This document shows, one piece after another, positions 1-54,929 of a stretch of DNA of 64,000 nucleotides. Position 1 is the first letter of the stretch. Each line of letters starts with the position of its first letter. This DNA comes from Pocillopora damicornis. Taxonomy: Eukaryota. Made by a program: the position numbers and the translations under genes. The stretch covers positions 62,001 to 126,000 of the forward strand of contig NW_020845487.1 of NCBI RefSeq assembly GCF_003704095.1. The letters are read 5' to 3'. The notes under the pieces were generated by a model. The model saw only the letters and a list, made by a program, of their open reading frames with translations, searched no databases and was not told the origin of the DNA.

Positions 1-2
1 GG

Positions 3-12000: not shown

Positions 12001-13892
12001 TTTATGGGTGGAGGCATTGGTGTTATTATGTTCTGTCGTTGGGTGAATGGCATTCCCCCTCCAATCGGAAGCTGTGGCATTGTCCCCTCTTCAGGCATCA
12101 TACCCATCTGCGGCGATTCCATGCCATTCATTATCGGTATGTTATTATAAAACTGTCGTCTAAATGGACCGTTCATGTGTCGGAAACGCCTTTTGTGACG
12201 CTTGCGACCATGATGCTCGGGATATTCCTCCGGCTCCTCCATTCGCGACCTCTCATATAAGTAAGAATCGCGAAAATGGTGGCGATGATGGTGTGGGTAC
12301 CAATAATGCAAATGACGGCGATAAAATGGTGCGTCGTCGTAAAAACTTTCAAAACCACGCCTTTCAGGATAAGAGTGGTATGGATTGTAAAAATGACGAC
12401 GATGGAAATGTCCGTACGATCTTCGCATGCCAGGATACCAGTGGTGATGGAGATGGTATGGTGGATAATGGTAATGGTGGTAAAAAGATCGTTCTTGTGC
12501 AGCCGCTGACGCAGAATGAGAACCTGGGCGTGAGACCACCTGTAAAGAAGCAGGTTTGGCTTTGACTTTTACACCGGCAGAATTTGCGTTTATTTCCAAA
12601 TCGGCGGATTTATCGTCCACTTGAAAATGTCCCACTTCAGGCCCATTGGATGGTTTTGCTTCGCCGTCCCTTTCAGCATATGAATCAAGATCAGAAGCGC
12701 CTCGAGTTTTCACAATTTCCGATCCACTGTTTCCTAAGGCGTCTCGAATTGGTCCTACGGGTGCATTTTGAATTTGAGGCACGGTGTGTATTGCTGCTTC
12801 GCTTTCTTGAGATGATGATTGCGTTTTCGTTGACAAATTCTCCTTGCGTCCCAGTGCAGAAGCGGCGTTTTGTTCACCTGATGTAGCTGTTGTGACTTGC
12901 GTTTCTAATTTCTCAGTGGGGGTCTTAGTTTCATCACCACTGACCTGTTTATTGACATTTTCTTTGATTAATGTTTGAGCTTCCTGTGGACTTGCTTGCT
13001 TGCCTACGATAACGGCTTTAGCTACACTATTTCCTAACTGTGATGGAGACCCCGGAAATTTGACAGCGTTCTTGTCGTTAGGAAGACTTCCCATCTTTTT
13101 ACTCTCGTCAGCGTTATCCTGAACACTTCGCACCTGTGCGTTTTCATCAACTACCGTACTTACTGTTGTCTTGCTTTCCTGAACATTTGCACTGTTTTTC
13201 TCTGCAGAACGTCCACTACTATTTACATTATCACTACTTGAATCAGCTTTATCGTTCACGCCATTGTTTTCCGTTTGCAGTTCCCCACTTTCTTCTTGTT
13301 TTTTGTGAACATTGTTCTCATTTTCCCTACTCGAAGAATCCTCTCCTTCCTTTAATTCCTCTGATTTTGATTTACTGCTGACGGAGTTTTCCATCGACCC
13401 TTGCTGATGATCAGCAACAGAACTGTCAGTGGCTCCATTATCAGAGCCTTTTTTCTCTTCCTCAACTGGGACGCCAATCGATTCGCTTTCTGGCTGGTCG
13501 ACTTTAGAGCGGACATTCTCTTCAGTGTTTAAGTGCAATAAAGTATCTTTATCCACACCAGAATCTGAAGTCAAAGGCTGTATGGGTGTTTCAATACCCT
13601 GTCTCTTTTGAGGCTCTACAGTCAACAGTTGTTCATAACTACTCTTTGGCAACTCGTCCTCGACTTCGGTTGGACTTCGCTTGTCCCTCTCTATATGGTC
13701 GCCATTTTTATAGTTTATATTGTCTGGCCAATCTCCTTCATTCAAGCCTCCTAGATTACCTGTTGTATATGTACTCAGAAGATCTTGTTTAGGGTACGGC
13801 TTGGCTTGTATTGGCGACAAGTTAAGGTGAAGGAGAAGAGAATGAAATAGTGCTAAAGTCGCCAGAATATTTGGCGGCGACCAGCCAAACAT
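3..13892 (-). CDS. Gene A: giant single-exon secreted His/Pro-rich polyprotein precursor, >=4,630 aa, 3'-partial (runs off the left edge)
   Basis: ATG at 13892 gives MFGWSPPNILATLALFHSLLLHLNLSPIQA-KPYPKQ (signal-peptide-like). Hand translation of both ends and of all modules is in one frame (codon starts = 2 mod 3), ending ...YRAMPNALSYLSMVPQLPHR at nt 3. The ORF track lists no minus-strand ORF in this frame in 1-13.9 kb, as expected if no stop exists. Order: acidic pro-region, His/Tyr and Met/Gly/Asn segments, 18 His-Pro modules with basic spacers, then a Gln/Pro-rich tail with KR sites. Confidence 0.92.
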   Translation of the reverse strand, partial: MFGWSPPNILATLALFHSLLLHLNLSPIQAKPYPKQDLLSTYTTGNLGGLNEGDWPDNINYKNGDHIERDKRSPTEVEDELPKSSYEQLLTVEPQKRQGIETPIQPLTSDSGVDKDTLLHLNTEENVRSKVDQPESESIGVPVEEEKKGSDNGATDSSVADHQQGSMENSVSSKSKSEELKEGEDSSSRENENNVHKKQEESGELQTENNGVNDKADSSSDNVNSSGRSAEKNSANVQESKTTVSTVVDENAQVRSVQDNADESKKMGSLPNDKNAVKFPGSPSQLGNSVAKAVIVGKQASPQEAQTLIKENVNKQVSGDETKTPTEKLETQVTTATSGEQNAASALGRKENLSTKTQSSSQESEAAIHTVPQIQNAPVGPIRDALGNSGSEIVKTRGASDLDSYAERDGEAKPSNGPEVGHFQVDDKSADLEINANSAGVKVKAKPASLQVVSRPGSHSASAAAQERSFYHHYHYPPYHLHHHWYPGMRRSYGHFHRRHFYNPYHSYPERRGFESFYDDAPFYRRHLHYWYPHHHRHHFRDSYLYERSRMEEPEEYPEHHGRKRHKRRFRHMNGPFRRQFYNNIPIMNGMESPQMGMMPEEGTMPQLPIGGGMPFTQRQNIITPMPPPINVAGNPPPGLLGGVNPQNFMMNGMNGLNNFNSANQMNNINTFGGINDMSNMGTAGLNSLGPMGAMEGLPGGVNGGMQGMAPTNEIPVRSLGARNVNSPSEAPRMAFKKTKILSGKKNETDKHDTGKAPLYKQHGAGKASKRKVNIKSWEKTLKRYHRLNVFTSRKHERHQYRRNAKSDEKKNDTKTHSLSHPHAQQPKEVKGNRKNSIVMHRPPIIYHPPPEIYHRPDIVVHRAPIMLHRPPIIYHQPPVVVHRPAIIYHQPPIVFHQPPPVVHQPILHSHDTWVTKPMVYHTASMVSHAKTYYGIPSHVYSGDYGEGCHGAHCSYRKGKVPHQAKNSTQPDHFKKTKRDSLGDYMAYFTNLWKPKVLKKREIYDQYDFITSTEGSKEKLSYKNMDVDVVNKRDTSSERIKGKLKLRRETEQDDGDDSKDGTQNKKKKDVVVNRPPIIYHPPPEIYHRPDIVVHRPPLVIHRPPIIYHQPPVIVHRPAVVYHQPPIVFHQPPPAVSQPLLYSHDSFTVHPSFYATHHGSVVRDFGHYVGVPNVITNYGNPLFGRPPPIGKRSKIEGSSSSENATVADSNNITAVASKKTSFEDNSKKAKNETNEKAGKKNTVIVRRPPIIYHPPPEIYHRPIIVVHRPPIMIHRAPIFYHQPPVVVHRPAIVYHQPPLVFHQPPPMVHQPVLKSHDTWISHPVVVPYSSRVLHHHTYVGVPDAYTVHHFGGGHGYSFYKSHILKHTKSLEEEASARNKISGDTNSTKLEEDSSHKPFHERKENVTSRLTTKKAKSQKGGKKNAVIVRRPPVIYHPPPEIYHRPEIVVHRAPIVIHRAPIIYHQPPVIVHRPAIVYHQPALIFHQPPPVVHQPVFRSHDTYVHRPLVRLYGSRMHHVGHLYHIPHAYYHGHGGGVHYMAYGKSKVPAKEKTEEEKGDTRATVKGKRGHKKSKPGRKGHRIRRKHIPLTRSKDKTETGTKLHKSHSFPVKYHKAKEVTEKANKKNSVVIHRPPIIYHPPPEIYHRPDIVVHRAPIVLYRAPIIYHQPPVVVHRPAIVYHQPPIVFHQPPPMVHQPVLHSHDTWVTKPVVIPYASHVRHVATYKGVPHEEIFMHGIGTGAFGKSHVPMKATRRDKVHRVEENDQDSGEKTKTKTESDTPTNEKQSNKTEHADGAKQNKENSAKLGAGERIARALSDSLIHKQWETRSPVGAQTRIQRSLHSLLPYFSDPVESGYSSEFSLSPQRHTVISGETATRIQRSIDDVWSPYTKPLTSSVNSRIGASARIQRALADPRTTFEGETAYEMYKRSSEETQTSTPDENADKNTNSTKKTLLIIHRPPILYHPPSHMIHRPSIVVHRPDIIVHRHPIVFHRPPILVHRPPIIIHRQPVLIHRPPIIVHRPPLVFHRPPIIIHRRPYIIHHHPILFHRPPIIIHKGPQMIVHHSHLIHHYPMHMIHMHCPGCGYGKSTVARIEDKSTENDIMKTSQSDQSFKDATNEDSKGKSSNKPKRSVADKKSKKSAVETDHDRKKKDSRKKKKDVVVNRPPIIYHPPPEVYHRPDIVVHRAPILIHRPPIVYHQPPVVVHRPAVVYHQPPIVFHQPAPAVNQPVLYSHDSFVVHPMAFASHMGSVVNDAGHYVGLPHGGVTNYPGNIPRGPTGHMFPTLNQAHWARRTEVSKPQGANPVKNSDQGHLEHQKYTNELKDHERKHLGKVHAAPTQQKSKHTKGERKNKVIVARPPMIYHPPPEIYDRPDIVVHRPDIVIHRPSIVYHQPSVVVHRAPVVYQQPPVVFHQPSPMVSQPIYNAHDTYVAHPVFHPQVSHIAHSSTYVGAPHLYPGHNDYGWGLSGHLPAEQTAQYHYASNYGYSGINGYTPSPAYDAYGYSSYGPAFGRSEVENSKSKSSKKKHERKHLKDSFLKKNNNASRKRRSAELSKRHLHHHHRHHHHSQHHRHSHHHRGSKRFYHLRPISAFAHPGHRKHVVIIHRPPLIYHPPPQVYRQPDILMHLPPLVYNRPAIMFQQPPTIVHHPPIIYHQPPVVFHNPPPIIHTPVIHSHEIFTPHAQHIMVPTSPYLHPSGNYFGSVVQGTAYGKSHIERMNTSSYKIESETKERGDVQKTKPDEKREASRSRTEKLVNNENAKKQNVGLVVHQPPIVYHPPPDIFDKPTVVMHPPPLVVHRPPILIHRAPVVVHRPPVIIHRPPIVLHHPTPVYHVPHLFHPMRFAFGKSSIEKDNSKVSKEDNSGKGGHIAKSTTAKEVGEKSEDKKGERKNLVVVHRPPMIYHPPPEIYDRPNVIMHRPDIVVHRPSIVYHQPSVVVHRPPIIYRQPPIIFHQPPPMINQPIMHVHDTYLAHPIPVPYTSQIHHTATYVGAPHYFHRQPFGAYVGHAFGKSAVEKVENRKTSKDEKNSQKKTSKSGDKFHSKLKRDTRDEDETKAKSSEKSKGHKKNKVVIARPPMIYHPPAEIYDRPNIVVHRPDIVIHRPSIVYHQPSVVVHRPPVIYQQPPVVFHQPPPLVHQPIMHAHDTYVAHPVPVPYSSHIQHTSTYVGSPHHYPGGWNYGWSQPRFFSPAFGKSKVPKTSSESLKGKKSKESQRDKHKRAAKDDQTKNDKEVKPKSERKSKKKNQVVIRRPPLIYHPPPEVYHKPDVVMHRPDIVIHRPPVVYHQPSVVVHRPPVVYQQPPVVFHQPSPTVSQPIFHAHDTYLSHPYFTPYTSSVSTGGNYVGAPHFYGSGWGMGGDMYGFHSAFGKSDVAKVHKKQKKQGDKEVYKGSKRTLEQEAKSLEDVVKLKNETKTTLNGNKKNLVIMRRPPLIYHPPPEVYHKPDVVMHRPDIVIHRPSIVFHQPSVVVHRPPVIYHQPPVVFHQPSPMVHQPIFHSHDTYLAHPHFVPFASHVHHTHSYVGAPHFYPGDWGWEGSNYDYGFHHAFGKSKVEKAGKQKNKSKNIERESEESRRTLHRTEVRKISEKGSREDSSKGNKKNLVVMHRPPLIYHPPPEIYHRPDIVVHRPDLVIHRPSVVFHQPSVVVHRPPVIYHQPPVVFHQPSPMVHQPIFHAHETYLAHPHFVPFMSHLSHAGSYVGAPHFYPGHFGHGIGHFMGHAFYKSKVEKGSKKGSVGTIERGKEGNQITHSKKAPRSKSKRDTSESSKASETLLKSTLLAHNIKGGTQRAQKKLSGNAQAKSVSLHPQKEDKKRHRKGHKKNMVVIQRPALIYHPPPEIYDRPDIIVHRPDFVIHQPSVVYHQPSVVVHRPPVIYNPPPVVFHQPSPMVHQPMYTAHDIYHSRPSFVPYSSQIKHTHTYVGAPHYYAGGWRYGYGFSNNAIPNMNSWQRWNAFQGPWYSPSLYRANYVAPTAPVNRRVLPRPNPAAFSKSRAFSKSLVEKHLDKAQELSKTHEKHSEKKHIKSPHRAVKKAGIRKQRSVEPDKNSTTTYHSLKDKLHKKGHQSGKGGKKNQVVLRRPPLVYHPPPEVYHKPDIIVHRPDIVLHQPSVVYHQPSVIVHRPPVIYNQPPVVFHQPAPMVRQPIFHAHEQYMAHPAFVPFTSHVQHSGTYLGAPNFFGGRWNYGYGNAFGKSHVLKYRSKSEKPKKRHRKQETRPEGKKGYILHPQKVKDVKASRKNDIVVSRPPIIYHPPPEIYHRPDIVVHRAPIVLHRPPIIYHQPPVVVHRPAVVYHQPPIVFHQPPPAVNQPILHSHDSFILRPAARFLPQGSTVTHSMSYVGIPNHVIHGDELDFHHFHRSHIEHSAKDKLNGKSSKPQITKSTISKTTTTKTENTETIITDQTQKKTLRSTINQHPLTKRQLMGSHSLYGSVSPINDVEDLHKSIEQKEKMSIIPGNTSIREHEVAKRSYKPSYDVTKRQLILPESTDSIPSVYNQLETAALQNQALLEAQEIPNPNGINMEHLPGFGANLKAIQELEGSPVAPSRFPLPLQQYLPATPKDDSPDVRVHVETAKSSIPPRKRGKRQLVPLYQQQGPVIPRVLYQAPNPGSVGVIHTTAPSSLYNLFNAYHPAYRAMPNALSYLSMVPQLPHR
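900..11395 (-). repeat. 18 tandem His-Pro heptad modules (about 85-160 aa each) inside gene A
   Basis: Consensus [KR]K-N-xVVx-HRPPIIY-HPPPEIY-HRPDIVV-HRPDIVI-HRPSIVY-HQPSVVV-HRPPVIY-HQPPVVF-HQPPPMV-HQPIxHSHDTY...TYVGAPH...AFGKS. Approximate module starts (high coordinate): 11390, 10690, 10170, 9630, 9030, 8050, 7430, 6860, 6120, 5630, 5245, 4720, 4190, 3665, 3140, 2480, 1730, 1240. Confidence 0.9.
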
Positions 13893-16800
13893 TATGTGGC
13901 TTTTTAGTACATTAAAACTTTCCCAAGAAAATGAGCGCGTTCTCTCCAACCATTGTTTTGTTATTACATCACAAGTAGTTTCTATCGCCGGTCTGTGAAC
14001 AGTAAAAAGATGATATAAGGGGCGCGGAATTTGGATTAAGTCTTCTTATCTCATAAAACCAGATGGAACACCTGTTAGTTTCCAATCAAAAGTATACTTT
14101 GTGACAGGTATTCTTGTTACGGCAATCAAAACCTCCCTCTATGAGTGGTGAACTCGCTCTATGAGGTGCACAAAATACTGGTGCCTCTTTAAGTTCAATG
14201 GACAATTAAAGTGTGGGGACTTTACACCAGAAATACACAGTCACAATAACCTATTTTTTTTACTCACATAAATACTTGCAAAGTATCGAAGAAGGAAAAC
14301 ATGATTAAGCATTCTCTGTCCACCAGAGAAGCAGCGTTGCGGTTCACATCACATAACAATGATAATTAAATGTTTTTGATTTGCTTTAAGAACTCTTCGC
14401 TGACGAAATATTGGGAATTGATGTATGTGTTCAGATGTTTTAAACATTGAACTCATTTTCATTCTGTAACATGTTCAAGAGGCGATGTTTTGACTACCGC
14501 CTGCCTTATGAACAAAATGTTGGTGTCATGTCAAAGGATACAAAATAAGATATAGCTTTCTTTAAATTAAACGCTTCAATGCATTTCCTTCTATTTTCGC
14601 GGAAAAGTATGTAAACCACCTTCTAGTCAAGTGCTTGTTTTATTATTTTTTTTATTTTAACGAACCCAAAGTGGACTTAACCGAGAGGCAAACAAATAAT
14701 TTTACCAGGAAGTAACTGATAAACAAACTGTTGATGCTTTGACCAATAATTGCCCCGATGCAGAAACAATTTAAATTTAGTTTTCAAACGAAATTCTAAA
14801 ACAAAGCGGACGCAAAGCAGACTTAACCAGGTAACAAACAAATACTATTACCTTGATGTAACAATTAAACAAACTTTTGATCCTTGGATGGGTAATTGCC
14901 CCAATGCCGTAAAATGCTTTAAATTTAGTTTCCTAAGGATTTCTTAAACAAAACTATAGCTGAAAGATTTCATTCACAATATTTTATTTTGACTGAAATG
15001 CATTTGGATGACAGTTGAAATTTCAGTTCAGGTGACCGGGTACAACTCAGATTTTAGTGCGACAGACCATTAGCCTCAAGAACTTGGTGATGTTCTCATT
15101 TCCGTCAAAATTCAGTTTCGTATTTCAACATGCATCCAATTTAGCATGATTTCTCAAGCGATTTTACCATGGGGACTTTTTGTATTAATCGGTTTACATT
15201 TCAGCACGCGATGTAATTAATTAAGCACCGTTTTAAGGGATTGTTGGTCGGTTAAACACAATATGTTCGTCAGATAAAATATTTGTCGACTTTTTTTGGA
15301 TATTGCGTTGTAAGGAGGGGGCTTTAAAGTATTAAACGACCTCTTGTAACTGAGCCCTCACTTTTAAAGCAGATTTCGAAAAGTATTAGTATTGAAAATC
15401 TTACTTCATCGCCTCCTCACTACTTGTCTTGCCAAAATCTATTTCCGTTGGAAAGATGATCGTAGCTGCTGATCACGTTTTGTGGTAAACGCTGAGACGC
15501 TTTTCTTCAGAAAACAGGCTTTATTTGTCATTATTATTATGTAATGATAGTTTTAGAAGGCCAACTACAGTTGCGAAGATCAAGTGTCTATTGCACTTTG
15601 TTGGAATGATAGCTGCTTATTTTTGTAACCGAGGAAAATAGGATGCATTTTTTAGGGCTATGTTTCGGGTCACTGTCAATAGAAAACTGCAGAGAAGTCG
15701 GCTTAATTATTTTTACAAAAATTTCTTAACCGTTGCTATCTTCTTCTCTTTTTTCTTTTTTCTAAACTTGCTTCCGATAATGGAAAAGCTACTGGTGGCC
15801 GAAAATAAGTCTTACGAAGCTTACCGAACAAATTCTAACAAACAGGCCTTAAGTGAAACCCCTGCAAATGGTCTGCGCTTCGCTAGATTCTTTAATGCAT
15901 CTATAGTTTCAGTTAAATGACTGAAAACTCGTCAGCGTTCAATACGGGTTGTACTTTTAGGTGAAAAACTCCAATTCAAAGGAGATACCCAACTCATCAA
16001 GGGAGAATGTGTAATCTGTTATGTTTCCAAAAGAACTAACTCGATGGAGCTTATTGTCCCTCAATTGTCTCTCTTCCGCTAGTTCCTTTCCATGCAGCAT
16101 CAGTTTAAATATCATAGCATTACCGTGCATTGTACTCATTAACCGTTTAACTTATATTATTAGCTTTCTTTACGAATCGGAATGGGACGTGGTGTGTCTG
16201 TGCGTATCATGGTTAAATCGATGACAATTTTGAGTTTATTTGCGTTGTTCACTACTCTTCTAATATCCTTCATGAATGGTGTCTGTAGACAGAGGTAAAC
16301 TATAGGGTTACTCGGTAAATACGACACTTTCACTTCAAAGGAGAAGACTTTTCAACTTCTTGACGAAAAAACACCTGTCTTTATGAGTTGTTCACCTTTC
16401 ACACCTTATGACTATGTTGACAAAGCGTCGACTTATATCTAATTATAATCACAGACGAAATTAATTTAACTCTTTAAGGGTTCAACCAAAACAAAAGAGT
16501 TGTTGACCTTTTTCAACTACCATCAAACAAACGCCGAACCACTTGTTGACCAAAATCTCGATTAGCCGTGTTCAAACTGAGGATGTGACAAAGTTGATTA
16601 ACGCTGGCTGCATTTTGGGGTTTTTGTAAAATATAATTGGTTACAGAATTCCTCGGAGACTTCTAATTGACTTAAATGCGTTTGCTTGCGTATCGATTGT
16701 TTGTTTTGCCGTGTACATTAATATTTTATGAAAGACTGTCGTTTGCCTGTTCAAATTATACAAAATAATTGGAAAGAAAAACCAAGTTCTTGAATAAAAT

Positions 16801-17375
16801 GCGTATTAAAAAATCTCGGGCAAAATGATAATTAGTAGTTTTTGTTATATGCGTTAAAGAGTGACTTAATTTTATTTTTTAGTTAGGTACTTGTTCAGTG
16901 CAACCGACCCGCTGTAGGAGGTAACCAAATATGGCAAGGTACCCGCTGGATCTTTATCGCACTAACACAGCCATAACAACTTGAACAAAGCAAAATCAAT
17001 CTCTCCTGACTTGCCTAGCAGGTGACCTAAATAAGTTATTCATGAAAGTAACCATTTATTTCTCTCTAAGACAAAATAAAAGAAATTAATTGTATTACTT
17101 GCATTTTAAGCGTGAAACCTCATTTAAATGAAGAGAAATACCAAAAGGAAATTGGGTTTTAAAGTTCATGGTTAAGTGATAAAATTTATTGGATAACTTT
17201 CACAGATTCATTGTGTTTCGTCTTTTAAATGTTTTATTTGACACGTTATTTTCAGTATTACAAAAGAATATTTAATAACTTACGTAAGTGTACTTTTCTC
17301 TTATCTGCAACACTAGCGCGGTCTTATCAAGGGTTTAGTTTGGTCTTTCGTGTCTCGCGGAAGACTATGATCAAC

Positions 17376-20300
17376 ATGAGACTAAATCGCTTTCTCTTTT
17401 TAGCATTTCTGGTCATAACAAGTCTTCTCGTGGTGCACAGTAAACCGCTTGCCCAAGATAACGAAGAGAAAGAGCGTTTGAAAAGAAATGAGCCCGAAGA
17501 AGACGCACCTGACTCTTCAGGCGAAGAACAAACGAGTAAGGAAGTTGAAAACCCAGCGGGGGATGAACAAAACGAGCCTACAGAAAAAGGAGATGAAAAA
17601 CAAAATCAACAGAATGAGCAAAAAATAGATCATGAAAATTCTGTTGAGCAAAACGGTGAAGATGCTTCTACAAACGAAGCGGCTGATGAAGCGGAAGAAA
17701 ACAGCAAAGATGAAAAGAGGAAAGGTTCCAAGAGATGGCTCCACCATGGGTATGCTGGTTATGGAGGGTGGGGTTATCCTGGCTGGGGTGGAATTCATGG
17801 ATATGGAATTTATCCTGGTGCATTTGGGCCTGGGTATGGTCTGGGCGCTGGATATGGTCTCGGAGCTGGTCTTGGAGCTGGTCTCGGAGCTGGTCTCGGA
17901 GCTGGTCTCGGAGCTGGTCTTAGCTGGCCTGGCTACTGGTATAGGTCTAGCGTACCAAAATACGCGAAAACTCAAGGTTCATCCAAAAAGTTTGGTGTCG
18001 AGCATCCTTTGGGCTATGGTCTCGGATATTTTGGTGGTTATGGTGGTTATGGCGGTTATGGTATTTATGGCGGTCTTGCCGGCCCGTGGAGTGGATACTA
18101 TGGTGGGCCTTACGGGTATGGATTTGGTTTTCCAGGATATGGCTTTATGCCAAACCCAGCTTTGTTTCCCACGTCCTTTTTCAGGTCTGGTGTTCCAACA
18201 AAATCAGATAAGAAAGGCGCAAACAGAAGAGAAAATGTAGCTAAGAGATTTTATGGTTACGGCCATTTTGGTGTTCCCGCTGGGTTTGGATATCCTGGCT
18301 GGGCTAATTACGGACATCCTGGATTCGGTTTTGGAGTTCCTGCCTTTGGTAGCTATAGCCCTTTCCTTGGGTATGGACCTTTCGGTACTTGCTTCTATAA
18401 ATCCAAAATACCCAAAGACAAAAAGGACCGTAGTAAGGCGAAGCGAGACACAACTGGGAAAGTCCATAAGAAATGCTGTGGAGGATGCGGAGGATGCGGA
18501 GGATGCGGAGGATGCGGTGGATGTGGAGGATTCCTGGGCTGCGGAGGCAGCTACGGAGGACTTGGAGGATGTGGTGGATTTGGCCTAGGAGGATGGGGTG
18601 GATTAGGCTTAGGAGGATGGGGTGGATTTGGGCATGGCTTAGGATATGGAGGATTTGGCCACGGTGGATGGGGATGGGGCGGTTATGGCTATCCTCTATC
18701 TGGTGGGTGGGGCTTAGGAGGCTATGGCGCCTGGGGCCCAGGCTGTGGATTCTACAGATCAAAGGTTTCAGGACATGATAAACCGGAGAAACCTGAGAAT
18801 AAATCGAAACGGGAGGCTGATGACAATGAACAAACAGAAGACAAAGCTGAGGAAGAGCAAGCACCAGAAAGCTCAGAAACAAAAGATGACAAGAAAGACA
18901 AGAGTAACTGCGGCTGCGCACCACCATCATCGGACAACTCCGGAAACAACAAAGCTGGAAAAAGAAGTTGTTGCGGTGGTTCAGCATACTTGGGATTACC
19001 CTTTTATGGAGGTTATGGAGGATACGGGGGATGGTATGGCTCGGGATACGGCTATGGCTATCCTTTCCTAGGGTATGGCGGGCTAGGTTTTGGTTTAGGT
19101 TACGGTCGTGGTTTAGGTTATGGAGGATGCGGTTTCCCCTGTGGAGGTTCTCTTGAGGTAAGAACTAAAAAAAATGGATGTTATTAAATTTTCTTAGGAT
19201 ATATTAGAGCAACTTATCATGACGCTTACCATAGGAACTAACAGAACTTACCTGCTTGGTAAGATCTTAGGAGTGAGACAGTCAACATTTCAAATTCCAA
19301 ATTTTAAATTTCAAGACGTTCTAAGTATCCAATAATTTGCATTTCGATTTCCATGATTAATTTCTAAAGTGAAACGTTGAAGGTTTGTTATAAATACTAT
19401 CTTTTATCATGCTATAGCGACTGATACCTTTAACACTGTGTATGCAGACGATTGAACGTAAGGGCGCATTCATCTGCTGATTTATTTCGCGAAATTAGAT
19501 TGAGGATCTGAGCCAGAACAACACAGGACAGTAGACTTGGCAATTATTGAGATTTTGAGAGAAGTTATTGTTTCGTTTTCTTAAAAGGCTTTTATAGAAT
19601 TATGACAAGAAAGTTTACTGAAATTACGCTGAGATAAGCTCGTGTCACTCAATTATCAAAACGTAACAAAGAAAAGCATAAGTAGCAGTAGTTGCTGTCT
19701 AAAAAAAAAAAAACGAAACAAAACAGACCAAGTCTTTTAGGGAAATGTCCTTATGATTTGTTTTCATATGAGCCAAGCACAGACGTAATTTCCAACTGCT
19801 TGCATTGTTCGACGGTGTCTTTTTTTTCTTTGTATTCGTTGCCTCATGTAAATATCCATATTTTTATTTAACTGAAGTTGAAGCGAGCGAACGCGTTTTT
19901 GTGAAACAATTTGAGGTTATAATTATCTATCATAAATAGCTCCGGATTGACTGTTTGGCCTAAACACGGTAGAGGATATTGTAGCCCCATCAGCCGTACT
20001 TTCTCTGATTTACAAACTTTAATGAAAAAGAATTTCTAAAATTAAGCTAAAGAGGCTAAAAATGAGATCGGACTCGCGGACCATTCAAAATTTTTTCAGC
20101 TATTGGGAGCCATTTATACAAATGATTCTCATTTATTACCCATGTTAAGTCGGTGGCGTGTTCTTACACGTATCTCGAAATGTCAAACACGTTAATAAGA
20201 AGCTGATTGGCCCTCTATTTGTATCAAAGATAGTCTTAAGCAGGTAATACCTGTTAGTCGGTAAATCACGAGCCTGCTTTTTCCCTGTTTATACTGCTTT

Positions 20301-23300
20301 CTTGGTAAATTTCTACTGATACAGCATCTTCGAAGTCTTTCGCGCAGTATAAGCTAATCCCATGTTTCATACTCGTCACACCGACACCCTTTCTACCTCT
20401 TGGTAAGCGGTCTTACGGTTCAGACGAATATACCTTTAAAATCAGCAGCAATTTCTCACGTAAATTACGCACAAGCATATTAAAGCCCAAAACTAACCCC
20501 TATTTTAACCTTTTTTTTTATAATACATCTGATTTTCGTGCCAGACTACGCTGGTAACTCCCATTCTCAATTTTTTAGGTAACATAATTACGATTTAGCC
20601 GTGAAACCTTACAAATATAAATTTGAAAAATAATTACATTCCTATTTCTCTAACGTTTCATTCTTAGGCCTAACAAATGTATGCAACAACTTCACGCACT
20701 TTACTTCTATAGTTACGTGAGCTCGTTTCTGGGCTCTGTAATGTGTTAACTGTGCATTCAAATCTCATTTGCGAGCAATTATACTTTTTATGTCAATCAG
20801 GTTGTTGATCCATGTGATTGTGGATACACCACTATGGCTGGTCCTTGCGGTTGTGCTTCTTGCTGTGGAAAGTCAAAGATTTCAAAAGAGGAAAACGATT
20901 CTCAGAAAGAGAAAAGGAGCGCCGAAGCTGATAAAAAGAAGCAGTCTAAGCGATGCGGATGTGGAGGTTGTGGAGGTTGCGGAGGTTGCGGAGGAGGATA
21001 TGGAATAGGTTTTGGTGGGTGTGGTGGCTGTGGAGGATACGGTGGATGTGGTGGCTGTGGTGGTTGTGGCGGATGTGGCGGATGTGGCGGATGTGGCGGA
21101 TGTGGTGGGTGCGGCCACGGCGGCTGGGGCGGTCATGGAGATTGGTTTGGTGACGTCGGACACGGGGACTGGTTTGGTGACTTAGGCCATGGCTGCGGAG
21201 GATGTGGTTGTGGGGGATGTGGTTGTGGCTGTGGCGGATATGGAGGACATTGTGGATACGGAGGTCATGGATGGTATGGACATGGTGGTTGGGGTGGATG
21301 CGGTCATAGTTGTGGTGGCTGTGGTGGCTGTGGTGGCTGCGGCTGTGGAATTTTCCGATCTAAACTTGCCAAGAATGACAAGAAACAAACAGAAAAGCAA
21401 GCGAAAGATAGCTCGCAGCCCGCTCAAGATAAGAAAGCAGCACCAGATGCGGGAAAAAAGGAGGAAAAGGCAACTAAAAGGTGTGGACTTTGGGGTGGTT
21501 TTGGAGGATGTGGAGGATTCGGTGATCTTGGTGGATTTGGAGGTTGGGGAGTTGGCGATTGGAACTTCGGTGGTTGTGGAGGTCCCTTCGGAGGCTGGGG
21601 TGGATATCCAGGTTACGGCTATGGCTATGGAGGCTGTGGTAGCTGTGGAAGCTGTGGAGGTTGTGGAGGCTTTGGGGGATGTGGCTATGGGGGTTATGGT
21701 GGCTGTGGAGCCTCTTGTGCTGATGCTGGACCGTGGACATTTTTTAATGGCGGCTGCTGTAAATCTAACGTGGGTGAAAAGGGTTCTTCTGATAGTGCTC
21801 ATGATGAGAAGTCTCCAGGCAAAGAAGCTGCGCCATTGTCTGTTCAACCAGCTGGGGGACCTACACCTATAGCCAAAGCTGCCGCTGCTGGTGCTGTGAA
21901 ACCCGGTCAACCAGAACCAGCACCAGCATCAGCACCTGCTAAAACTCGGGATCAACCAGCAGCCCGAGAAAAAGCTTCCAAACGCTACGGAATCCCTGGC
22001 TTTGGAGGTTGTGGATACTGCGGGGGCTGTGGACGTGGTTTCGGAGGCTTTGGAGGATGCGGAGGGTTAGGATATGGAGGATTAGGATATGGAGGGTTAG
22101 GCTATGGAGGGTTTGGATGTGGGGGATTTGGTCATGGGGGCTATGGACTATTGGGTCATGGATTTGGTTTCCCCGGCGGCTATGGTGGTTATGGCTGGGG
22201 ATTTCCAGGTTATGGATATGGTTACGGTTTCCCATTAGGTTTTGCTCGATCAAAACTTCCCCAGAAGAATAAAGACGTGAGACCAAATACTCGTGGGGAA
22301 ATCCCTGTAGCAGACGGTTATGTACAAAAGAAGAAGCAAACTATTCATCTTGGATATGGTTATGCCAGTGGTGATAACTATCGTCTTGGATATGGATTTG
22401 GTGGGATGGGAGGTAGCTAACTCAATTTTTTTCCAAGTTCTTATTTAAAAGTCAATAATCGTAAATGTTTGATTAAGGAAAGAAAAAAATGGCCTGCCGG
22501 AATCAATTCTTACTACTTTGTTATTCGGCGACCCCACAGCTGAGGTAGAGAGTAAGTAATGGACTTCCAATGATCGTTAAACTTACTAACCAAAAACAAG
22601 TTAACAAGTGTGACTAATAGGATTTAATCCTATTACAGCCAGTTCAATATTTATGTTTTTGTCTTTGCATATATTACAGAATCGTTTTCATAAGCTCTTT
22701 TATTAAAAGGTCTTAGTGCAATTTGTATGCAAGATATGGTTATGTTCGCCTTTCCTAGGTTTAGCTGGCTATCATGGAGTTGGTGGCGTTACTGGAACAT
22801 CCGTCTATCGCTCTAAGATTCCAAAAACGAGTGTAAAGGGCTTTAAAAGATGGGGCTGGGGACATGGTGGGTATGGCGGACACGGATTCGGTCATGGTCA
22901 TGGAGGATGGGGATATGCGGCACCTTATGGTCATCCCATTACCCATCCGGGATTCACAAGCATCGGATTTCCTGGACATGCCCTGGCAACATTTGACGTC
23001 AAAAACAGCATCGCTCAGAAGCGGGGAAAACAAAAGCGACAGATAGTTCCCTTTGGTGCAGTGAGTCCTGGTCCACTGGCTTTACCTGCCACTCTGCCTG
23101 CTCCACTTCCTGCTCTTGCACCTCTGGCTTTGCCTGCTACATACCATGCTCCTGTGTATGCCCCAGTTGCACATCCTGTTGCCGCTGTCCCTTCCTACGC
23201 CGCTGTGCCCGCAGCAGGCGCACTACCAGCGACTGCTTTACCTGTTGGCTGTGAGTAGACTTTCTTTGTGTTTGTTGCGCCTCCTGGTCTCACGACAAAG

Positions 23301-31962: not shown

Positions 31963-33846
31963 TCATTTGACTTTTATTGATCCTAAAATTTGAGGAGAGA
32001 AATCATTATTTGATGAAGTCATATACTGTTTAGGTTTTATAGAAGACAAATCTGCAATTGACGTTGTAATTTCTCTATTATTAGGTTCCTTTCTTTGAAA
32101 AATTTTGCCATTAGCATTATTGTCAGGAGACCCTTCTTTTCCTTCAGTATCTAAAATTTGAGGGGAAAGGTCTTCATTTAACAAAGCTGTGTGCCCTTTA
32201 GGTTTTATATTGAATGACTCGACAGCCATTGTTACCATTTCTCTGTTGTCATTTTCTTTCCTTTTAGATACTTTACCATTGATTTTACTGACACCAGAAC
32301 CTTTCCTTTCCCCAGCCTCTTTCCCACCAATTTTCCAACTAAAGGAGTATCCACCTCCACTTCCTTTTCCGCCTCCTTTCTTACCTTCTTCTCTTCTTCC
32401 CTCTCCTTCTTCACCTCCTCCCCCTCCTCCTTCCCCACCTGTTCCACCTTTACCACCACCAACACGTCCACTAACAACTCCTCCGCTAACTCCCACTCCA
32501 CCACCTGCCTCTATGCTAATAGTACCTCCACCTGCTGCACCTCCACCGCCACCTGCACCTCCACCAGCTCCACCAGCTCCACCACCACCAGCTGTTTTCT
32601 CAGTACCTCCTCCTCCAACACTTGCTGCTCCTCCACCACCCTCTCCTCCACCAATTCCTCCTCCACNNNNNNNNNNNNNNNNNNNNNNNNNNNNNNNNNN
32701 NNNNNNNNNNNNNNNNNNNNNNNNNNNNNNNNNNNNNNNNNNNNNNNNNNNNNNNNNNNNNNNNNNTCCACCAGCCCCTCCTCCACCAGCTTCTCCCCCA
32801 CCAGTTCCTACTCCACCACCTCCTCCTTTACCAGCTGCTCCACCACCAGCTGCTTCCCCGCCAGCTGCTCCCCCACCAGGTCCTCCTCCACCAGTTCCAC
32901 CCCCACCTGTTTTACCACCAGCTGCCCCCCCACCAGCTGCTCCTCTGCCAGCTTCACCACCAGCTCCTCCACCAGCTGCACCCCCACCAGCTTCACCACC
33001 AGCTGCTCCTTCACCAGATTTACCACCAGCTGTCTTTCCACTTCCTTCTCCCACACCAGCTGAGGGAGGAAGTCCTAGCCTATCTGTTAGCCAGGATGGT
33101 AGCCAGAGTTTTGGTCCTTCACCAGGTGGTAGAGGAGCTGGAATAGGCTTAGATACGATCAAAGTTGGCATCATCCAGATGTCTTCCAGTTTTTTTCCTC
33201 CAGGATTACAACAACAAGGACAGCATGGTGGCATCATACATGACTGTGGTTGACATGGTAAGCAATCCGAGCAGGAACAACCACATGCTGATGGATTAAA
33301 ACACGCACCACCTCCGCCTCCACAGGGCATAAAACATACGGATCCGTCTTGCGATGGAGAATCGCCTGACTGATCCTCATTTAATTTCTCTTTCTCTTTT
33401 CCATTACCTTTAGGCTTACTCTTGTTGTCCTGCGTGCCTTTAAAGTGATGATCCTCATTGTCGCTTCCCATGTCAGGCTCTGCGCTATCGTCAGTCCCAC
33501 CATCGTTTTCATAATCATTAAGCCTTTTCAATGCGTTTTCTAAAATCTCGTATAGTTTCTTAAAATTTTCTCTTGAAATAGAATGAAGAGGACCTTCAGG
33601 TTTTTCTTCTTCCGTTCTCTTCGTAACAGAAAAACCATGACCGTATCTTTGAATTAACAGTACTTTTTTCGAAAAAGGTCGTGAGTCCTCGATTGCCTTA
33701 ATAACTAAACCATTGAAATTTTTGATATGTTGTAGACGTTTAAAGAACGCAACGTAATTATATTCACTTGATTTGTTATTGTATATTCCAACGGTGAAAC
33801 ACTGAAACTGAGTCAATACAATAGCAAACTTGAGAACTTCATACAT
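31963..33846 (-). CDS. Gene C: secreted protein with Cys-rich core, poly-Gly/Ala region and duplicated C-terminal ~56-aa unit (contains assembly gap)
   Basis: 627-codon ORF with a hydrophobic N-terminus MYEVLKFAIVLTQFQCFTVG. Cys cluster CFMPCGGGGGACFNPSACGCSCSDCLPCQPQSCMMPPCCPCCCNP; GGEAGGGAA-type repeats; two copies of NGK...RKExxNRE...IKPK...SPQIL at the C-terminus. True length uncertain because of the 100-N gap. Confidence 0.72.
   Translation of the reverse strand: MYEVLKFAIVLTQFQCFTVGIYNNKSSEYNYVAFFKRLQHIKNFNGLVIKAIEDSRPFSKKVLLIQRYGHGFSVTKRTEEEKPEGPLHSISRENFKKLYEILENALKRLNDYENDGGTDDSAEPDMGSDNEDHHFKGTQDNKSKPKGNGKEKEKLNEDQSGDSPSQDGSVCFMPCGGGGGACFNPSACGCSCSDCLPCQPQSCMMPPCCPCCCNPGGKKLEDIWMMPTLIVSKPIPAPLPPGEGPKLWLPSWLTDRLGLPPSAGVGEGSGKTAGGKSGEGAAGGEAGGGAAGGGAGGEAGRGAAGGGAAGGKTGGGGTGGGGPGGGAAGGEAAGGGAAGKGGGGGVGTGGGEAGGGGAGGXXXXXXXXXXXXXXXXXXXXXXXXXXXXXXXXXXGGGIGGGEGGGGAASVGGGGTEKTAGGGGAGGAGGGAGGGGGAAGGGTISIEAGGGVGVSGGVVSGRVGGGKGGTGGEGGGGGGEEGEGRREEGKKGGGKGSGGGYSFSWKIGGKEAGERKGSGVSKINGKVSKRKENDNREMVTMAVESFNIKPKGHTALLNEDLSPQILDTEGKEGSPDNNANGKIFQRKEPNNREITTSIADLSSIKPKQYMTSSNNDFSPQILGSIKVK
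32667..32766. other. Assembly gap (100 N) within the Gly-rich repeat of gene C
   Basis: Run of exactly 100 N, typical placeholder for a gap of unknown size. Confidence 0.97.
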
Positions 33847-34424
33847 TTCAGTCCATATTTCTCCCAGTTCCTCTTCCCCTTTGTGTGAAATTTCGACTGC
33901 ATTGTTCAGCTAACAGTAGGGAATTCCTTGCTATGATGCCATAGGTACTTTCTTATACAAAGCATGTTTTCAAAGTTTTCTTCTTCACTTAGTGAAACGA
34001 TGAAAGAGAAAAAAATGTCATGACTTTTTACCACCTTGACTCCTAGTGTTATCGAGTATGTAAGTTAACAGGTCTCTCTATTGTCAAAGACTTTGGGTTA
34101 TCAATCATTCATGCCCAGATCTAGAAGGCGTTTGAACAATGTATAAGATTAAGAAAGATTGAGAAAGATTGTAAAGTTTGCGGCGCTCGGTCTTGACCAC
34201 TGAGCTGCTGATAATTATTAATAAGAGAACCAAGATTGTCAAATCTGTGATGAATGGATTGGTCGAGATTAGCTGTACATTTTTAAATGAATGAATTATT
34301 TGCTTCGAGTAACATGCTCTCAAAAAGGTCACTTATTTAATAAACCTTCGCCTAGTTAAATGAAACGCTTTTAATTAACAAATTATTTGCTAAATGTTAT
34401 AAAGTGATCATCAAACTCTCGGAC

Positions 34425-35054
34425 CTATCTCCTTTTCCGACCTAAGTAAACTCCACAATGTGGATGGCCACATTTTGCTTTTGCCTTTAAAGGTTTCATT
34501 TTAAATTTCGGTGGAGTGTATTTAACCTTGTACATTATCATCGGACGCATTAAGCAACATCCAGCGCAACCACAAAGAGGAAAGTAAGGGAAAGATGGCT
34601 TCGGTTTGGAAGACTTATCCTTTACTTTCGTTCCTCGTCCATCTTTCGATGTGTTTTGACTTAAACTCTTCAGACTGCCCAAAGCCTTTTCCAATAGTTT
34701 GCAAACTGTTTTTATCTTAAGTGAGTCTGGATTTCTTGTAGCGACATAGCTTCCGGCTCGTTTCCCCCTTCTTGGGCCTAAACTCCGTTCCACTTTACCA
34801 CTGTGTAGACGTCTTGTGCTGTTGCAAGAACTTAAGCCAATTTTCTGTGAATTTTTTTCTTGAGAAAATGCGGTAGAAGCACAGTTAGTCTCAGGAGTTT
34901 CACAACCAACGCTTTCGATTGCTGAACAATAGCCAGGTTGAGTTGAAACAATGCTCAGGCAACAAAACGTTAAACGCCAGAGACTTTTCTTAAGCCATTT
35001 TTTCGTCGACAGCGATGTCATCCTCTTATTTTTTCTTGAAATATCTTTCATCAT
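34425..35054 (-). CDS. Gene D: 209-aa probably secreted protein with a degenerate copy of the gene E Cys-domain tail
   Basis: Hydrophobic stretch SLWRLTFCCLSIVSTQPGYCS near the N-terminus. C-terminal CGCAGCC...YTPPKFKMKPLKAKAKCGHPHC matches CDPPKFKFKPLKPKPMCHCP of the gene E cassettes. TATAAA (minus) about 50 nt upstream at about 35104-35109. Confidence 0.65.
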   Translation of the reverse strand: MMKDISRKNKRMTSLSTKKWLKKSLWRLTFCCLSIVSTQPGYCSAIESVGCETPETNCASTAFSQEKNSQKIGLSSCNSTRRLHSGKVERSLGPRRGKRAGSYVATRNPDSLKIKTVCKLLEKALGSLKSLSQNTSKDGRGTKVKDKSSKPKPSFPYFPLCGCAGCCLMRPMIMYKVKYTPPKFKMKPLKAKAKCGHPHCGVYLGRKRR

Positions 35055-51071: not shown

Positions 51072-52439
51072 TTAGTGATGTTGTGGCTTGGAGTGTGCAG
51101 CAGCGATCTGCGGATTGACAACAGCAGGCGTCCTCTCTGAGGCATTTGACTTCTTACAGCAACAATGGCAGCAGCAGGGACAGCAGTGGCAGCAGTGGCA
51201 GCAGCATGGGCAGCAGCACTCGTGGCAACAGCAACAACATGGTTCGCAGCAGTGGCAGCAACAGCAGCATGGTTCGCAGCAGTGGCAGCAACAGTCGTGG
51301 CAGCAACAGTCGTGGCAGCAGTCACAGCAACAGCATTTCTTGGACCCTTTTCCCTTTCTTACCGCTTGACTTCCATCGGCTTGCGCCATTATTGGTGCAA
51401 CAGCCAAGATACCCGGGTTATCTGACACTTGCGCTGCTACAGTTGAGTGTCCTGTATTTGAACGAGAGTTGCATTTGCAATCACATCGCCTCGTGATGTT
51501 TGTCTGAATACTGCCACTTTCTGCATCTTTTTGGTTCTTGCATTTGCAATCCTCTGGCCTGCAATTCTTTATCGTTGCGCTTGAAGAGTCACAGTTACAT
51601 TTTCCTTTGTCTCTCAGACACTTTTTTGCGTCTCCTTGCGAGCAATCACACTTTCCGTCGATATTTTGTTCCTCTTTTGCTGGAATTTCACAAGTGCATT
51701 TATTGGCATCGGCCTCTTTCCTTTCGTCTAAAATAAAAAAAAAAAATACAGGTTTAACATACGATCAACTTCATGCTAACCAAAGAAACGGTCACAAAGG
51801 TTTGACGTTGTTTTATATGGAGAAGAAGTAAGTTGGTCAACCCTCTGGAGGGTATGCAAATCAACAAGGTACTTTCAAAGCAAACCCCGTCGAGGAAAGT
51901 AGTGAATGAGATACCAGTAAGTCTCTTGGCGAGTGTTTAAGAGTTCTTGTGTGTCAACACGCTCCGAATTTGACCCAGCATAATATATTAATTACTTTAA
52001 AGCCAATGGCTTATTGTAACTTTATTTTCTCATAAATCAGGTTTAAAGTAACTTATCTTCTTATATCTTATCAAAATTCGTTCTTTTTAATTTTATGGAA
52101 TGTTTTGGGTTGCTTTCTGTGAACAGCCGCACTAATTGTCGTTGGAGTTTGCTTGTTTTCTTATGATCGTGAAAAAAATGATCTGAAACGAAACAATTTC
52201 TCTCTCATTTGAGCACCAAAAAAAATCGACGTTGAAACATCAAAATCAGTTCACTACTGCAGCGAATGATTTCTCGATGGATTCGATCCGTCAACAGAAA
52301 TAAACCCTTGCTATGAAGTTATCCTCGTTCTCACTTCAAACAACAAATCCTTACCGTGATTTGCCTTGATTGATTTTCCTTCCACTAATAAGAAAACACA
52401 ACTTAACATAGAAAAACAAAGAAACACTGTCGCCTTCAT
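51072..52439 (-). CDS. Gene F: secreted ultra-high-cysteine Cys/His peptide precursor, 2 coding exons, 246 aa
   Basis: Exon 1 52355-52439 MKATVFLCFSMLSCVFLLVEG-KSIKANH G|gtaag; exon 2 51072-51727 after a ttttag acceptor (phase 1). KCxC-repeat pro-region, then SKK-CCCCDCCHDCCCH...CCC-KKS (59 aa: 41 Cys, 8 His) and tail AAAHSKPQHH*. Confidence 0.85.
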
Positions 52440-54222
52440 AATGACGCACAAAACAAACCAGAGAAAGAACTCGGTGAGTCCAGTGATTGAAGTGTTGCCT
52501 TTATGATGTAATTTACCCTTAAAAATCAATTGAACTGGTGACCTTTTGTTAATTTCGTGATTTGAATACGACCATATATTATATGCGATTTGTTTATGCA
52601 TCAGAACTTTGTTTGATTTTATGACTTGCATCTTTTTGGCAAAAACGGATAACAGTGATCTTCATTTAGGTCATCAGGCAACTATTTTAAGGAAAGTGAA
52701 AGACACTTTAGTTCGTGTTATAACCGGCAAGGGTGTTCCAATTTGCGAAATCATTGAATACATGTCAAATGGTCACTTCCGGGAATGGTGCTTCAACGAA
52801 CTAATTTAATTTTACCAGAGAAACCAGAAAAGTTGACTTGCACTTTAACTTGAACTATGGCTCAGAGAGACAGCTGGTCATATTTTTGCACCTTTTAACA
52901 TACTGATCGAAATGACATGTGTTGTTTTCTTAGTTGCTCACGCAAAAACTGCAAAAAACACCTTACAATTTCCACTGAACTAACAAATGGATTTCACGAT
53001 TGGTTATCCCTCTCTTTTTTCTGTTTGAATGTGTATTGCAGTGAAAAATCACCTTTTCCTTTATTCTAAAGTTACCAATGTGTGCGCTTGCCGTAACAAA
53101 AAGAAAACGCCTTACGCAGAGATCAAATGCTCGTGTCTGCTGCTTCCGTGTTATTGGAAGGATTTTCTTTTTCGGAGTAACATGATAGGCGGGGATGCTG
53201 GGAAATATCTTCAGGTATCAACCTGTTAGCACTCATTTGCAGTTTGGGGAAAGCTAGAAGAATGTGGCAGTGGCTTGTCCCGGGATAAGTGCTGGTCTAA
53301 TGTTTCGAGTAAACAAATGGTTCTCACTCACAGACATTGCAATTGCTTGAATGATTAGCCAAAAGAAAAACTAAATAGATCATAGATCATAATTATTATT
53401 ATTTCGTTCCTCAATGTCTCTGAAAACCCTTTGGAAAACACTACGAGTTTCAAGTTGTGCCATGCAGAACTAGATAATCGAGTAGAATATATCTGTCCCG
53501 TGAGAATTTCAAACTTTAATTGCACAAAGCTTGACAATATTTGGGAACTCGCGAGAAAGTTTCATGCTTCTGCAATATTATAAAAATCTTAGAATTCAAT
53601 GCGTTGATCGATTCATTTTATTTCACATTCGCATTTCAAACAAACACCATTAAACAATCTCACATCATATCCCTAAATATGGTTACACTTTGCACATATC
53701 ACATTTAAATACAAACAGTCAAACTAATTGCTCGCAAAAAACGATGTAAACACTAATATTCATTGTTCTTGACAAAAACGATTCGTCTGAACATCAGAAG
53801 AGGTATATATCAGGTGACGCGTCATAAAGTATTTACGCTGCAATGCACTTGGAACCATATGACTCTTTCCGTTCCTGACGAGCTCACGTGATCTTGATGT
53901 AGCAAAATCGCTAAAGGCTTTGTTTCTCGATAAAGTTCGTTAAGACTCTTATAAGACTTTCCTTTAGTATACCTGTCACCTCAACGGATAGAGGATAAAT
54001 TTTGTTTCAATTTATATACTGACTTTCAGATCTAATTATTTACCAATTTCCTTACTTCTCTGACATTTTACCGTTATGTAACTTCCATTATGAAACAATT
54101 TCATCGGCAGCGGACGTCATTTAGCTTATGCCCTGTATGTTGCAGCGATAGGCAGAGGAACACGCAAAACGATGGTCTACAATCAGAATATGTTTTTCAA
54201 AATTAGTGACGATAATTTCGAT

Positions 54223-54929
54223 TTAATGATGGATTGGGCGGGAGGCGGCAGCTGCGGCGGCGGCAGCCAATGCAGCGGAATTGAGTTGTTCCTTGGACTT
54301 TTTGCAGCAGCAGCAGCATGGACAGTGGCAACAATGATGGCAGCAGTGACAGCAGCATGGCTCACAACAGTGACAGCAGCAGCATGGCTCACAACAGTGG
54401 CAGCAACAGCAGCATGGCTCACAGCAATGACAGCAACAATCGTGACAGCAACAGTCGTGGCAACAGTCATGGCAGCAGTCACAGCAACAGTCATGGCAAC
54501 AATCACAGCAGCAATCGTGACAACAGTCATGACAACAATCACCGCAACAGCATTTCTTTGTAGAATTGATTTTTTTGCCGATACCAAGCTGAGGCGATAT
54601 GGCAGATGATAGTTTCACGGCTCCTATTACAGCGGGGTCTGCTGGTCTTGGAATTCCTGCCTTGGCCTCTCCCTCTTTGCATTTACAGTTGCATTTCTTC
54701 CCACCTCCAATTGCGGCAACATTTTTGCATTTTTCTGCTTGTGCCTTACAATCACATTTCTTGGGTTGATCTTTGTGTGTACAGTTCTTGGGTTGATCTT
54801 TGTGTTCACACTTCTTGTTTTCAGTGTACGTACCGCCACATTTTTCGGGCCACTCTGATTTCTTCGTCTCCTCGGTACATTTCTTTTTAGGTTTTCCACT
54901 GCATTCACAAGAATCTTTCACTTTTTGCT
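54223..54929 (-). CDS. Gene G: paralog of gene F exon 2; 5' exon not located
   Basis: Acceptor catgcag| at 54929 (phase 1). KKCxC repeats, then TKK-CCCGDCCHDCCHD...CCCCC-KKS (83 aa: 53 Cys) and tail AAAAAAASRPIHH*. Confidence 0.8.

Follow-up and report, generated by a model that had tools for sequence, protein, structure and literature searches.

A hexacoral family of predicted secreted precursors carrying an extremely cysteine-rich block, within a cluster of low-complexity genes in Pocillopora damicornis

Introduction

Two neighbouring genes on the minus strand of a 64-kb region of the coral Pocillopora damicornis (64,000 nt, hereafter the window), here labelled F and G, contain stretches in which about two of every three codons specify cysteine; a third gene, H, carries a related stretch. 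An earlier note, made from the sequence alone, had described secreted peptides of 64-69% Cys that might be extreme disulfide cross-linkers or extracellular metal sinks. Is the cysteine frame the translated one, is the block conserved, and what could such a protein do? We found that F and G represent a real, undescribed hexacoral family that carries automatic names only. Judged by sequence, they are probably of a known kind, the cysteine cross-linker, and what is new is the form: a secreted precursor with a putatively released block.

Results and discussion

F and G are two-exon genes with a cysteine core

The window DNA contains introns and has a G+C content of about 33-47%. Both F and G are two-exon precursors with the layout signal peptide, charged CxC pro-region, KK-bounded Cys core and PxHH tail (Table 1). 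In the spliced model of F, exon 52439-52355 is joined in phase 1 to 51727-51072 (246 amino acids, aa), and in that of G, exon 56040-55956 is joined to 54929-54223 (263 aa). In each, the intron has GT/AG ends and the reading frame is free of internal stops. The existing models pdam_00011483 and pdam_00011484 match F and G exactly over 133 and 131 aa, and RMX45021 (P0012) and RMX45026 (P0007) equal the first 133 and 131 aa of the spliced F and G models, respectively. The first exons encode a basic-hydrophobic N-terminus and end in VxG-KSI; signal peptides were called from a hydropathy scan and alignment. The first exon supports the signal peptide previously given to F, and the corresponding exon of G (56040-55956) had been missed. 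Among the proteins collected from databases, P0033 (245 aa, from a 907-nt contig) and P0043 join the signal peptide directly to exon 2 and presumably derive from spliced transcripts, and P0003 and similar records begin with intron-derived residues.

The extreme cysteine content of the F and G cores is confirmed. The minus-strand coordinates were right, 51072 being the F stop and 54929 the first base of the last exon of G. The G core has exactly the 83 aa and 53 Cys reported before (54304-54552), whereas the F core, given as 59 aa with 41 Cys, has 60 aa, 42 Cys (70%) and 8 His on recount. C, H, D and E make up 56 of the 60 core residues in F and 78 of the 83 in G, with zero aromatic residues and zero Lys; the cores are mildly acidic (isoelectric point, pI, 5.2-5.6), and CCEPC occurs twice in F and three times in G. 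The KK and KKS bounds and the tails KPQHH (F) and RPIHH (G) are present in both genes. The pro-region had been called a KCxC repeat: CxC is indeed repeated (6 overlapping copies in F, 4 in G), but literal KCxC occurs only 3 and 2 times. Likewise, 64-70% Cys holds for the cores only, as the spliced precursors contain 23% (57/246, F) and 25% (66/263, G).

Three side observations concern G. A purine-rich segment of its intron (about 55880-55770, minus strand) has ends resembling an acceptor and a donor, carries an in-frame stop and may be the decayed remnant of a middle exon; its similarity to the extra N-terminal segment of the Acropora and Porites members was not significant, the best scores being reached by 41-50 of 300 shuffles. 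In the G-like records P0042 and P0043, the frame is lost just before the core near A runs (about 54553-54580), through sequencing slips or null alleles. In P0008, P0009 and P0044 (G-type), Trp replaces the stop and reading continues past the terminal HH, which may reflect intron read-through or a longer form.

The cysteine frame is translated and under purifying selection

As a TGY repeat permits, four of the six frames are open over both cores, and two Porites models were spliced into the Ala frame; the block might therefore be a TGY microsatellite read in the wrong frame. We reject this artefact, whose probability we regard as negligible, on the third-position bias, the in-phase splice to a signal peptide and the frame-preserving indels in all named orthologues. 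In a protein-guided alignment of F and G, 57 of 61 codons specify the same residue in the Cys frame; the Gln frame, which here has 4 stops in G, gives 51 of 60, and the remaining frames give 31-43. Over the cores, stops number 7 in G for the plus-strand Gln frame, and 1 and 9 for the Leu frame. At the DNA level, 28 of the 35 base differences between the cores fall on third positions, and 25 of the 57 same-residue codons differ silently. Protein guidance is not needed to see this bias: among the five best ungapped 84-nt matches, which may overlap, all 10 of 10 mismatches lay at position 3 in four windows and 8 of 10 in the fifth. Because these 25 silent changes among 57 mostly two-fold codons are near saturation, the likeness of F and G is unlikely to result from recent conversion.

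The earlier note would have been overturned had an Ala/Thr- or Gln/Trp-rich frame proved to be the translated one. This did not happen: the Gln/Trp frame has the 7 stops in G mentioned above, and the Ala/Thr frames reach identities of only 32/60 and 32/61. The Cys frame is thus settled, and the core is under purifying selection.

The core is the conserved part of a hexacoral family

Named members were found in five coral genera (Pocillopora, Stylophora, Orbicella, Porites and Acropora) and in the sea anemone Actinia tenebrosa; XP_022789514.1 (Stylophora) and XP_029200839.2 (Acropora millepora) are two of them. A profile search against 1.84 billion representatives gave 9 matches, a wider profile gave 15 from 2005 candidates, and pro-region queries led to the acceptance of 4 of 16 and 3 of 35 candidates. 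Nematostella, Exaiptasia, octocorals and medusozoans yielded no named match, although the low complexity of the sequences makes such searches less sensitive and absence is not established. A full core is present in 51 of the 59 collected proteins, two of which are F and G of the window. In these 51, the N-terminal dibasic flank is KK in 50 and KR in one (P0059), and KKS follows the core in all 51.

In the sequences compared, it is the core, not the pro-region, that is conserved. The F core is identical to its Porites and Orbicella orthologues at 55 of 55 aligned residues; outside the core, F and the Porites protein agree at 53 of 113 pro-region and 16 of 27 tail positions. Between G and the Acropora digitifera protein, the corresponding values are 76/80 (core), 45/112 (pro-region) and 18/26 (tail). 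None of 1000 shuffled cores matched the F-Porites or G-Acropora scores, so the order of residues in the core matters. The unit order is fixed (Asp units, Glu-Pro units, His units), and length changes by whole units. This depth of conservation had been missed by the earlier note.

These patterns bear on a quite improbable alternative, that the active product is the CxC pro-region, as a peptide of toxin or defensin type, and that the Cys block serves as a tag for packaging or aggregation. In full-length members the pro-region has 11-14 Cys; it also changes faster, as venom peptides do, and coral SCRiPs are described as using a signal peptide and a convertase site (PMC2652719). However, only three pro-region Cys columns and a spacer Pro are invariant before the core in the wide alignment, the core is the invariant part, and the pro-region matched nothing in Pfam or PDB.

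A tree of 16 chosen rows, built with the core excluded, grouped the G-type proteins with Acropora (support 97/93), the F-type proteins with Porites and Orbicella (85/89) and the Actinia pair (100/99), with a long-branch warning on P0049. Given the presumed assignment of these corals to Complexa and Robusta, the G-Acropora and F-Porites-Orbicella groupings suggest that the F/G split probably predates the divergence of the two lineages.

Database annotation offers automatic names only: 'KAP 5-4/10-4/10-6-like' in RefSeq and, for two members, 'Metallothionein' in UniRef. A Pfam scan of 16 window open reading frames (ORFs) reached no cut-off; F, G, H and 12 others were empty, and the ORF at 17229-19184 gave two sub-threshold matches. 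Nine family members scanned at E up to 10 gave unrelated weak matches only, although composition filters may hide weak ones. PDB sequences gave zero matches at E up to 1, and the ESM Atlas gave no usable match for G or the Stylophora orthologue. No study of the family was found by accession or locus id, motif or keyword in a literature largely without subscription papers and supplementary tables, and its genes may figure in the marker tables of cell atlases.

F and G resemble cysteine-rich matrix proteins but differ in form

By analogy, F and G would act most like the matrix proteins KRTAP and EDCRP, but they differ from both in being secreted and in matching no family profile. KRTAPs are intracellular, and KRTAP and EDCRP fill cornifying keratinocytes, whereas F and G carry a pro-region and dibasic flanks behind a signal peptide. 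The likeness to KRTAP, EDCRP and EDPCCC lies in Cys runs, CCxP units, repeat numbers that vary among species, and clustering with Gly/Tyr-rich and His-rich low-complexity genes. The CCEPC of F and G is a CCxP-type unit similar to the CCDPC of feather EDCRP, an avian protein of 29-38% Cys for which disulfide cross-linking has been proposed (PMC4423139). Spacer residues are His, Asp and Glu in F and G and Gln, Lys and Ser in KRTAP, EDCRP and EDPCCC. Keratin-associated Pfam profiles matched neither F, G nor the nine members (E up to 10), with the same reservation about filters. In Nematostella, 'KRTAP-like' proteins (XP_032242219.1 and two NvERTx contigs) have been treated as KRTAP antecedents and have time-course expression (PMC10029157).

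The F and G cores contain 64-70% Cys, compared with 29-46.6% in whole EDCRP and EDPCCC proteins, the highest being cobra EDPCCC1 at 46.6% (PMC5366951). The statement that the peptides are twice as Cys-rich as keratin-associated proteins (KAPs) therefore compares a sub-region with whole proteins; the precursors, at 23-25%, lie below EDCRP and EDPCCC1. It is tenable only if the core is excised, which the conserved dibasic flanks suggest.

Metallothioneins are cytosolic, lack a signal peptide and contain about 30% Cys. With them, F and G share a small, Cys-dense, aromatic-free core (6.6-9 kDa) and CxC motifs, the latter in the pro-region. A secreted or vesicular metallothionein-like sink, in which the core would bind Zn, Cu or Cd through thiolate/His clusters so that the metal is stored or disposed of, accords with the dominance of C, H, D and E, with the UniRef names and with the metal stored in granules and nematocysts of anemones (PMC4168758). 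We nevertheless consider it unlikely. All nine members lack a metallothionein Pfam match at E up to 10, the Cys density is about twofold higher, the signal peptide and precursor layout send thiols through an oxidising compartment, and all examined neighbours resemble structural low-complexity proteins. Moreover, runs of 5-6 Cys give no turns for wrapping metal clusters. Metallothioneins are also described as marked by a Lys-rich C/K composition (10.1101/2023.07.24.550260), whereas the F and G cores have no Lys. Thus, of the two functions suggested earlier, the disulfide cross-linker fits the anatomy and gene neighbourhood, and the metal sink fits poorly.

SCRiPs and galaxins are likewise hexacoral secreted Cys-rich precursors with convertase sites (PMC2652719, PMC2726143). 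The mature SCRiP is reported to have 41-48 aa with 8 spaced Cys (PMC2652719), and galaxins about 30-aa tandem repeats with two di-Cys and 12-13% Cys (PMC2726143); neither pattern occurs in F or G. A galaxin-like role in the skeletal organic matrix would suit the dibasic site, the di-Cys repeats of galaxins and the mild acidity of the F and G cores. It is very improbable, as a member occurs in Actinia, the 30-aa repeat is missing and the Cys density is five times that of galaxin.

Cnidocyst structural proteins undergo pro-peptide removal at a dibasic site. Minicollagens, NOWA, spinalin and v1g243188 are secreted, rich in Cys or Gly/His, and assemble into a disulfide-linked polymer (PMC12549020, PMC9205923), which resembles the role proposed for F and G. 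F and G lack the Gly-X-Y run, polyproline and spaced six-Cys domain that define minicollagens (PMC12549020).

F and G lie in a cluster with a common putative processing layout

By sequence, F and G sit in a cluster of predicted low-complexity proteins with His/Pro/Val, Gly/Tyr and Gly/Cys modules, which have the layout KK/KR-module-(K/R)S in common. This cluster-wide arrangement had also escaped the earlier note. The ORF at 1-14045 (minus strand) is stop-free over 4681 codons and runs off the window end; it has a signal-peptide-like stretch near its start, 5 Cys only and no Pfam match. It contains at least 17 His/Pro/Val modules with a period of about 7 residues, opening just after KK/RK and closing with xx(K/R)S. 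The motif [FY][GYHS][KR]S occurs 16 times in its 4680 aa, against a mean of 1.0 and a maximum of 6 in 1000 shuffles, although the module and flank patterns were picked post hoc, after the sequences had been viewed. The single-ORF precursor at 17367-19187 (plus strand) has a signal peptide and an acidic pro-region, followed by Gly/Tyr, GLGAG-repeat and Gly-Gly-Cys modules at KR/KK sites; by resemblance only, it is a candidate relative of the fibroin-like Nematostella v1g243188. Gly/Tyr and Gly-Gly-Cys modules between KK/KR-type sites recur at 20750-22420 (plus strand).

The region at 48654-37622 (minus strand) encodes a signal peptide, a long acidic pro-region and five repeated exons (47038, 43927, 42219, 40107 and 38128). 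Each of these exons (47038-37622) begins with KR or RR, followed by Cys/Gly/Pro modules, and all have a common Cys/Pro/Trp domain with the motif PCMWPCC and a PLKP stretch, without a Pfam match. In H, the core had rightly been described as related, with CCH units and poly-His: it comprises 54 aa with 29 Cys and 14 His, including a His6 run. An 84-nt Cys-rich exon of H (63104-63187, minus strand) splices in phase to the last exon, and the first exon was not found within the window.

Three further observations concern the neighbourhood. The broader region 20750-23258 (plus strand) contains Gly-Gly-Cys, Gly/Tyr, Gly/His and Ala/Pro modules with cluster-type flanks. Short Gly/Tyr and Pro/Tyr/Phe exons are interspersed among the five repeated exons, with weaker copies near 35054 and 33909. 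In the ORF at 31963-33909 (minus strand), a Cys/Pro patch is followed by a long Gly/Ala-rich run, which an assembly gap of 100 N interrupts; translation of the opposite strand gives poly-Pro.

Table 1. Positions in the window of the parts of F, G and H
Feature	Positions	Strand	Basis
F exon 1: start codon and hydrophobic N-terminus resembling a signal peptide; GT donor in phase 1	52355..52439	-	hydropathy, alignment, RMX45021
F intron: GT...AG, T-rich acceptor	51728..52354	-	splice model
F pro-region: Lys/Glu/Asp/Ser-rich, 13 Cys in CxC motifs; then hydrophobic spacer, basic stretch	51342..51727	-	
F N-terminal dibasic flank KK, putative convertase site	51336..51341	-	
F core: 60 aa with 42 Cys, 8 His, 4 Pro, 3 Asp and 3 Glu; units in the order CCHD, CCEP, CCH/CCP	51156..51335	-	
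F KKS flank, Ala-rich tail with terminal KPQHH, stop codon	51072..51155	-	
G exon 1: start codon and N-terminus resembling a signal peptide; GT donor in phase 1	55956..56040	-	splice model, RMX45026
G intron	54930..55955	-	splice model
G pro-region (12 Cys, 23% Lys), spacer, KK flank	54553..54929	-	
G core: 83 aa, 53 Cys, 13 His, 9 Asp, 4 Pro, 3 Glu, 1 Gly; unit order as in F, extra N-terminal CCHD/CCCD units	54304..54552	-	
G KKS flank, poly-Ala tail with terminal RPIHH, stop codon	54223..54303	-	
H last exon: related Cys/His/Pro core (62521-62682) closed by KRS	62377..62744	-	

A possible mechanism and its site

We favour, with moderate confidence, the reading that F and G are prepro-proteins which deliver the Cys block to a secreted structural material as a cross-linker. 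The signal peptide would direct the precursor to the secretory pathway, where the charged CxC pro-region and the tail may maintain the solubility of the 60-83 aa Cys/His block during transport. A proprotein convertase could then cleave at the KK/KR before the core and the KK-S after it, at sites that are present in the sequences, and a carboxypeptidase could trim the basic residues. The released peptide would have 6.6-9.1 kDa, 64-70% Cys and about 20% sulfur by weight. After the Golgi, it might condense with the His/Pro/Val, Gly/Tyr and Gly/Cys modules freed likewise from neighbouring genes and harden the mixture through dense disulfides, with His, Asp and Glu possibly binding Zn or Cu. The action would resemble that of the Cys-rich matrix proteins of hair and feathers, yet with secretion and proteolytic release.

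The likeliest site might be the armature of cnidocysts (shaft filaments, spines and barbs), which we propose tentatively and at somewhat below an even chance. The support is circumstantial. The family occurs in corals and a naked anemone, Actinia; because the latter has no skeleton, the family does not depend on a mineral one. The Hydra spine protein spinalin was reported as not found in Galaxea or Nematostella (PMC7430897, PMC9205923), so anthozoan spines need other proteins. The Nematostella shaft and barb factor v1g243188 is described as 'fibroin-like' (PMC9205923) and nematocyte-specific (10.64898/2026.06.23.733813, PMC9205923), and Cu has been reported in anemone nematocysts, with citation of Gupta and Hall 1984, whose title names Ca, Cu and Zn (PMC4168758).

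The same released cross-linker might instead come from gland or epidermal cells and serve a cuticle, attachment cement, mucus scaffold or egg/sperm coat, a site we think distinctly less probable. Actinia lacks a skeleton and has no thick cuticle, and cnidae are the obvious disulfide-hardened structures common to corals and this anemone. However, minicollagen, nematogalectin or any other known cnidocyst gene was not detected by Pfam in the 16 window ORFs, which favours gland or epidermal cells. Coral larval secretory cells are also reported to be rich in taxon-restricted secreted proteins, for which comparison with small Cys-rich proteins of mussels and barnacles suggested a part in adhesion (PMC12225738).

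Besides this lack of cnidocyst genes, several points weigh against a released cross-linker in cnidae. KK is a weaker convertase site than KR. The vicinal Cys-Cys pairs could form intramolecular loops that limit cross-linking (PMC2726143). AlphaFold2 gave no usable model: the mean predicted local distance difference test (pLDDT) was 34 for the precursor, with an alignment of 13 sequences, and 50 when the F core was modelled by itself. The anemone-type cores resemble F in composition and flanks, yet the likeness does not extend significantly to residue order (71 and 75 of 1000 shuffles reach the score), so the anemone-coral link rests on the pro-region and layout (E 7.7e-4). Finally, 8 of the 59 collected proteins lack a full core, one being an incomplete record: the Porites models P0047 and P0054 are those spliced into the Ala-rich frame, two P. 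damicornis models end upstream of the core, and P0042, P0043 and P0048 have lost it through an apparent frameshift.

A wider and rather doubtful extension of the cross-linker reading is a 'materials cassette', in which clustered secreted precursors would have their His/Pro/Val, Gly/Tyr, Gly/Cys and Cys/His blocks freed by one convertase and co-assembled into the spines, shaft and barbs of anthozoan cnidae, or into spirocyst rods. The cluster would then be a hexacoral counterpart of the amniote epidermal differentiation complex, and the F/G blocks a Zn/Cu-loaded disulfide hardener. If this were true, these blocks would exceed in Cys any whole protein compared (highest 46.6%).

Implications

As annotations mis-name or truncate the F/G genes, expression studies may have overlooked them. 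With no orthologue of Hydra spinalin reported from the anthozoans examined, the composition of their nematocyst spines and shafts calls for other proteins, and the F/G family and its cluster supply named candidates. The block would also test how much Cys the secretory pathway can carry. Whatever its site, a block of 60-83 aa that is two-thirds Cys and near-invariant in both main lineages of stony corals would mean that sulfur hardening of the keratin type has also been reached independently, by way of secretion.

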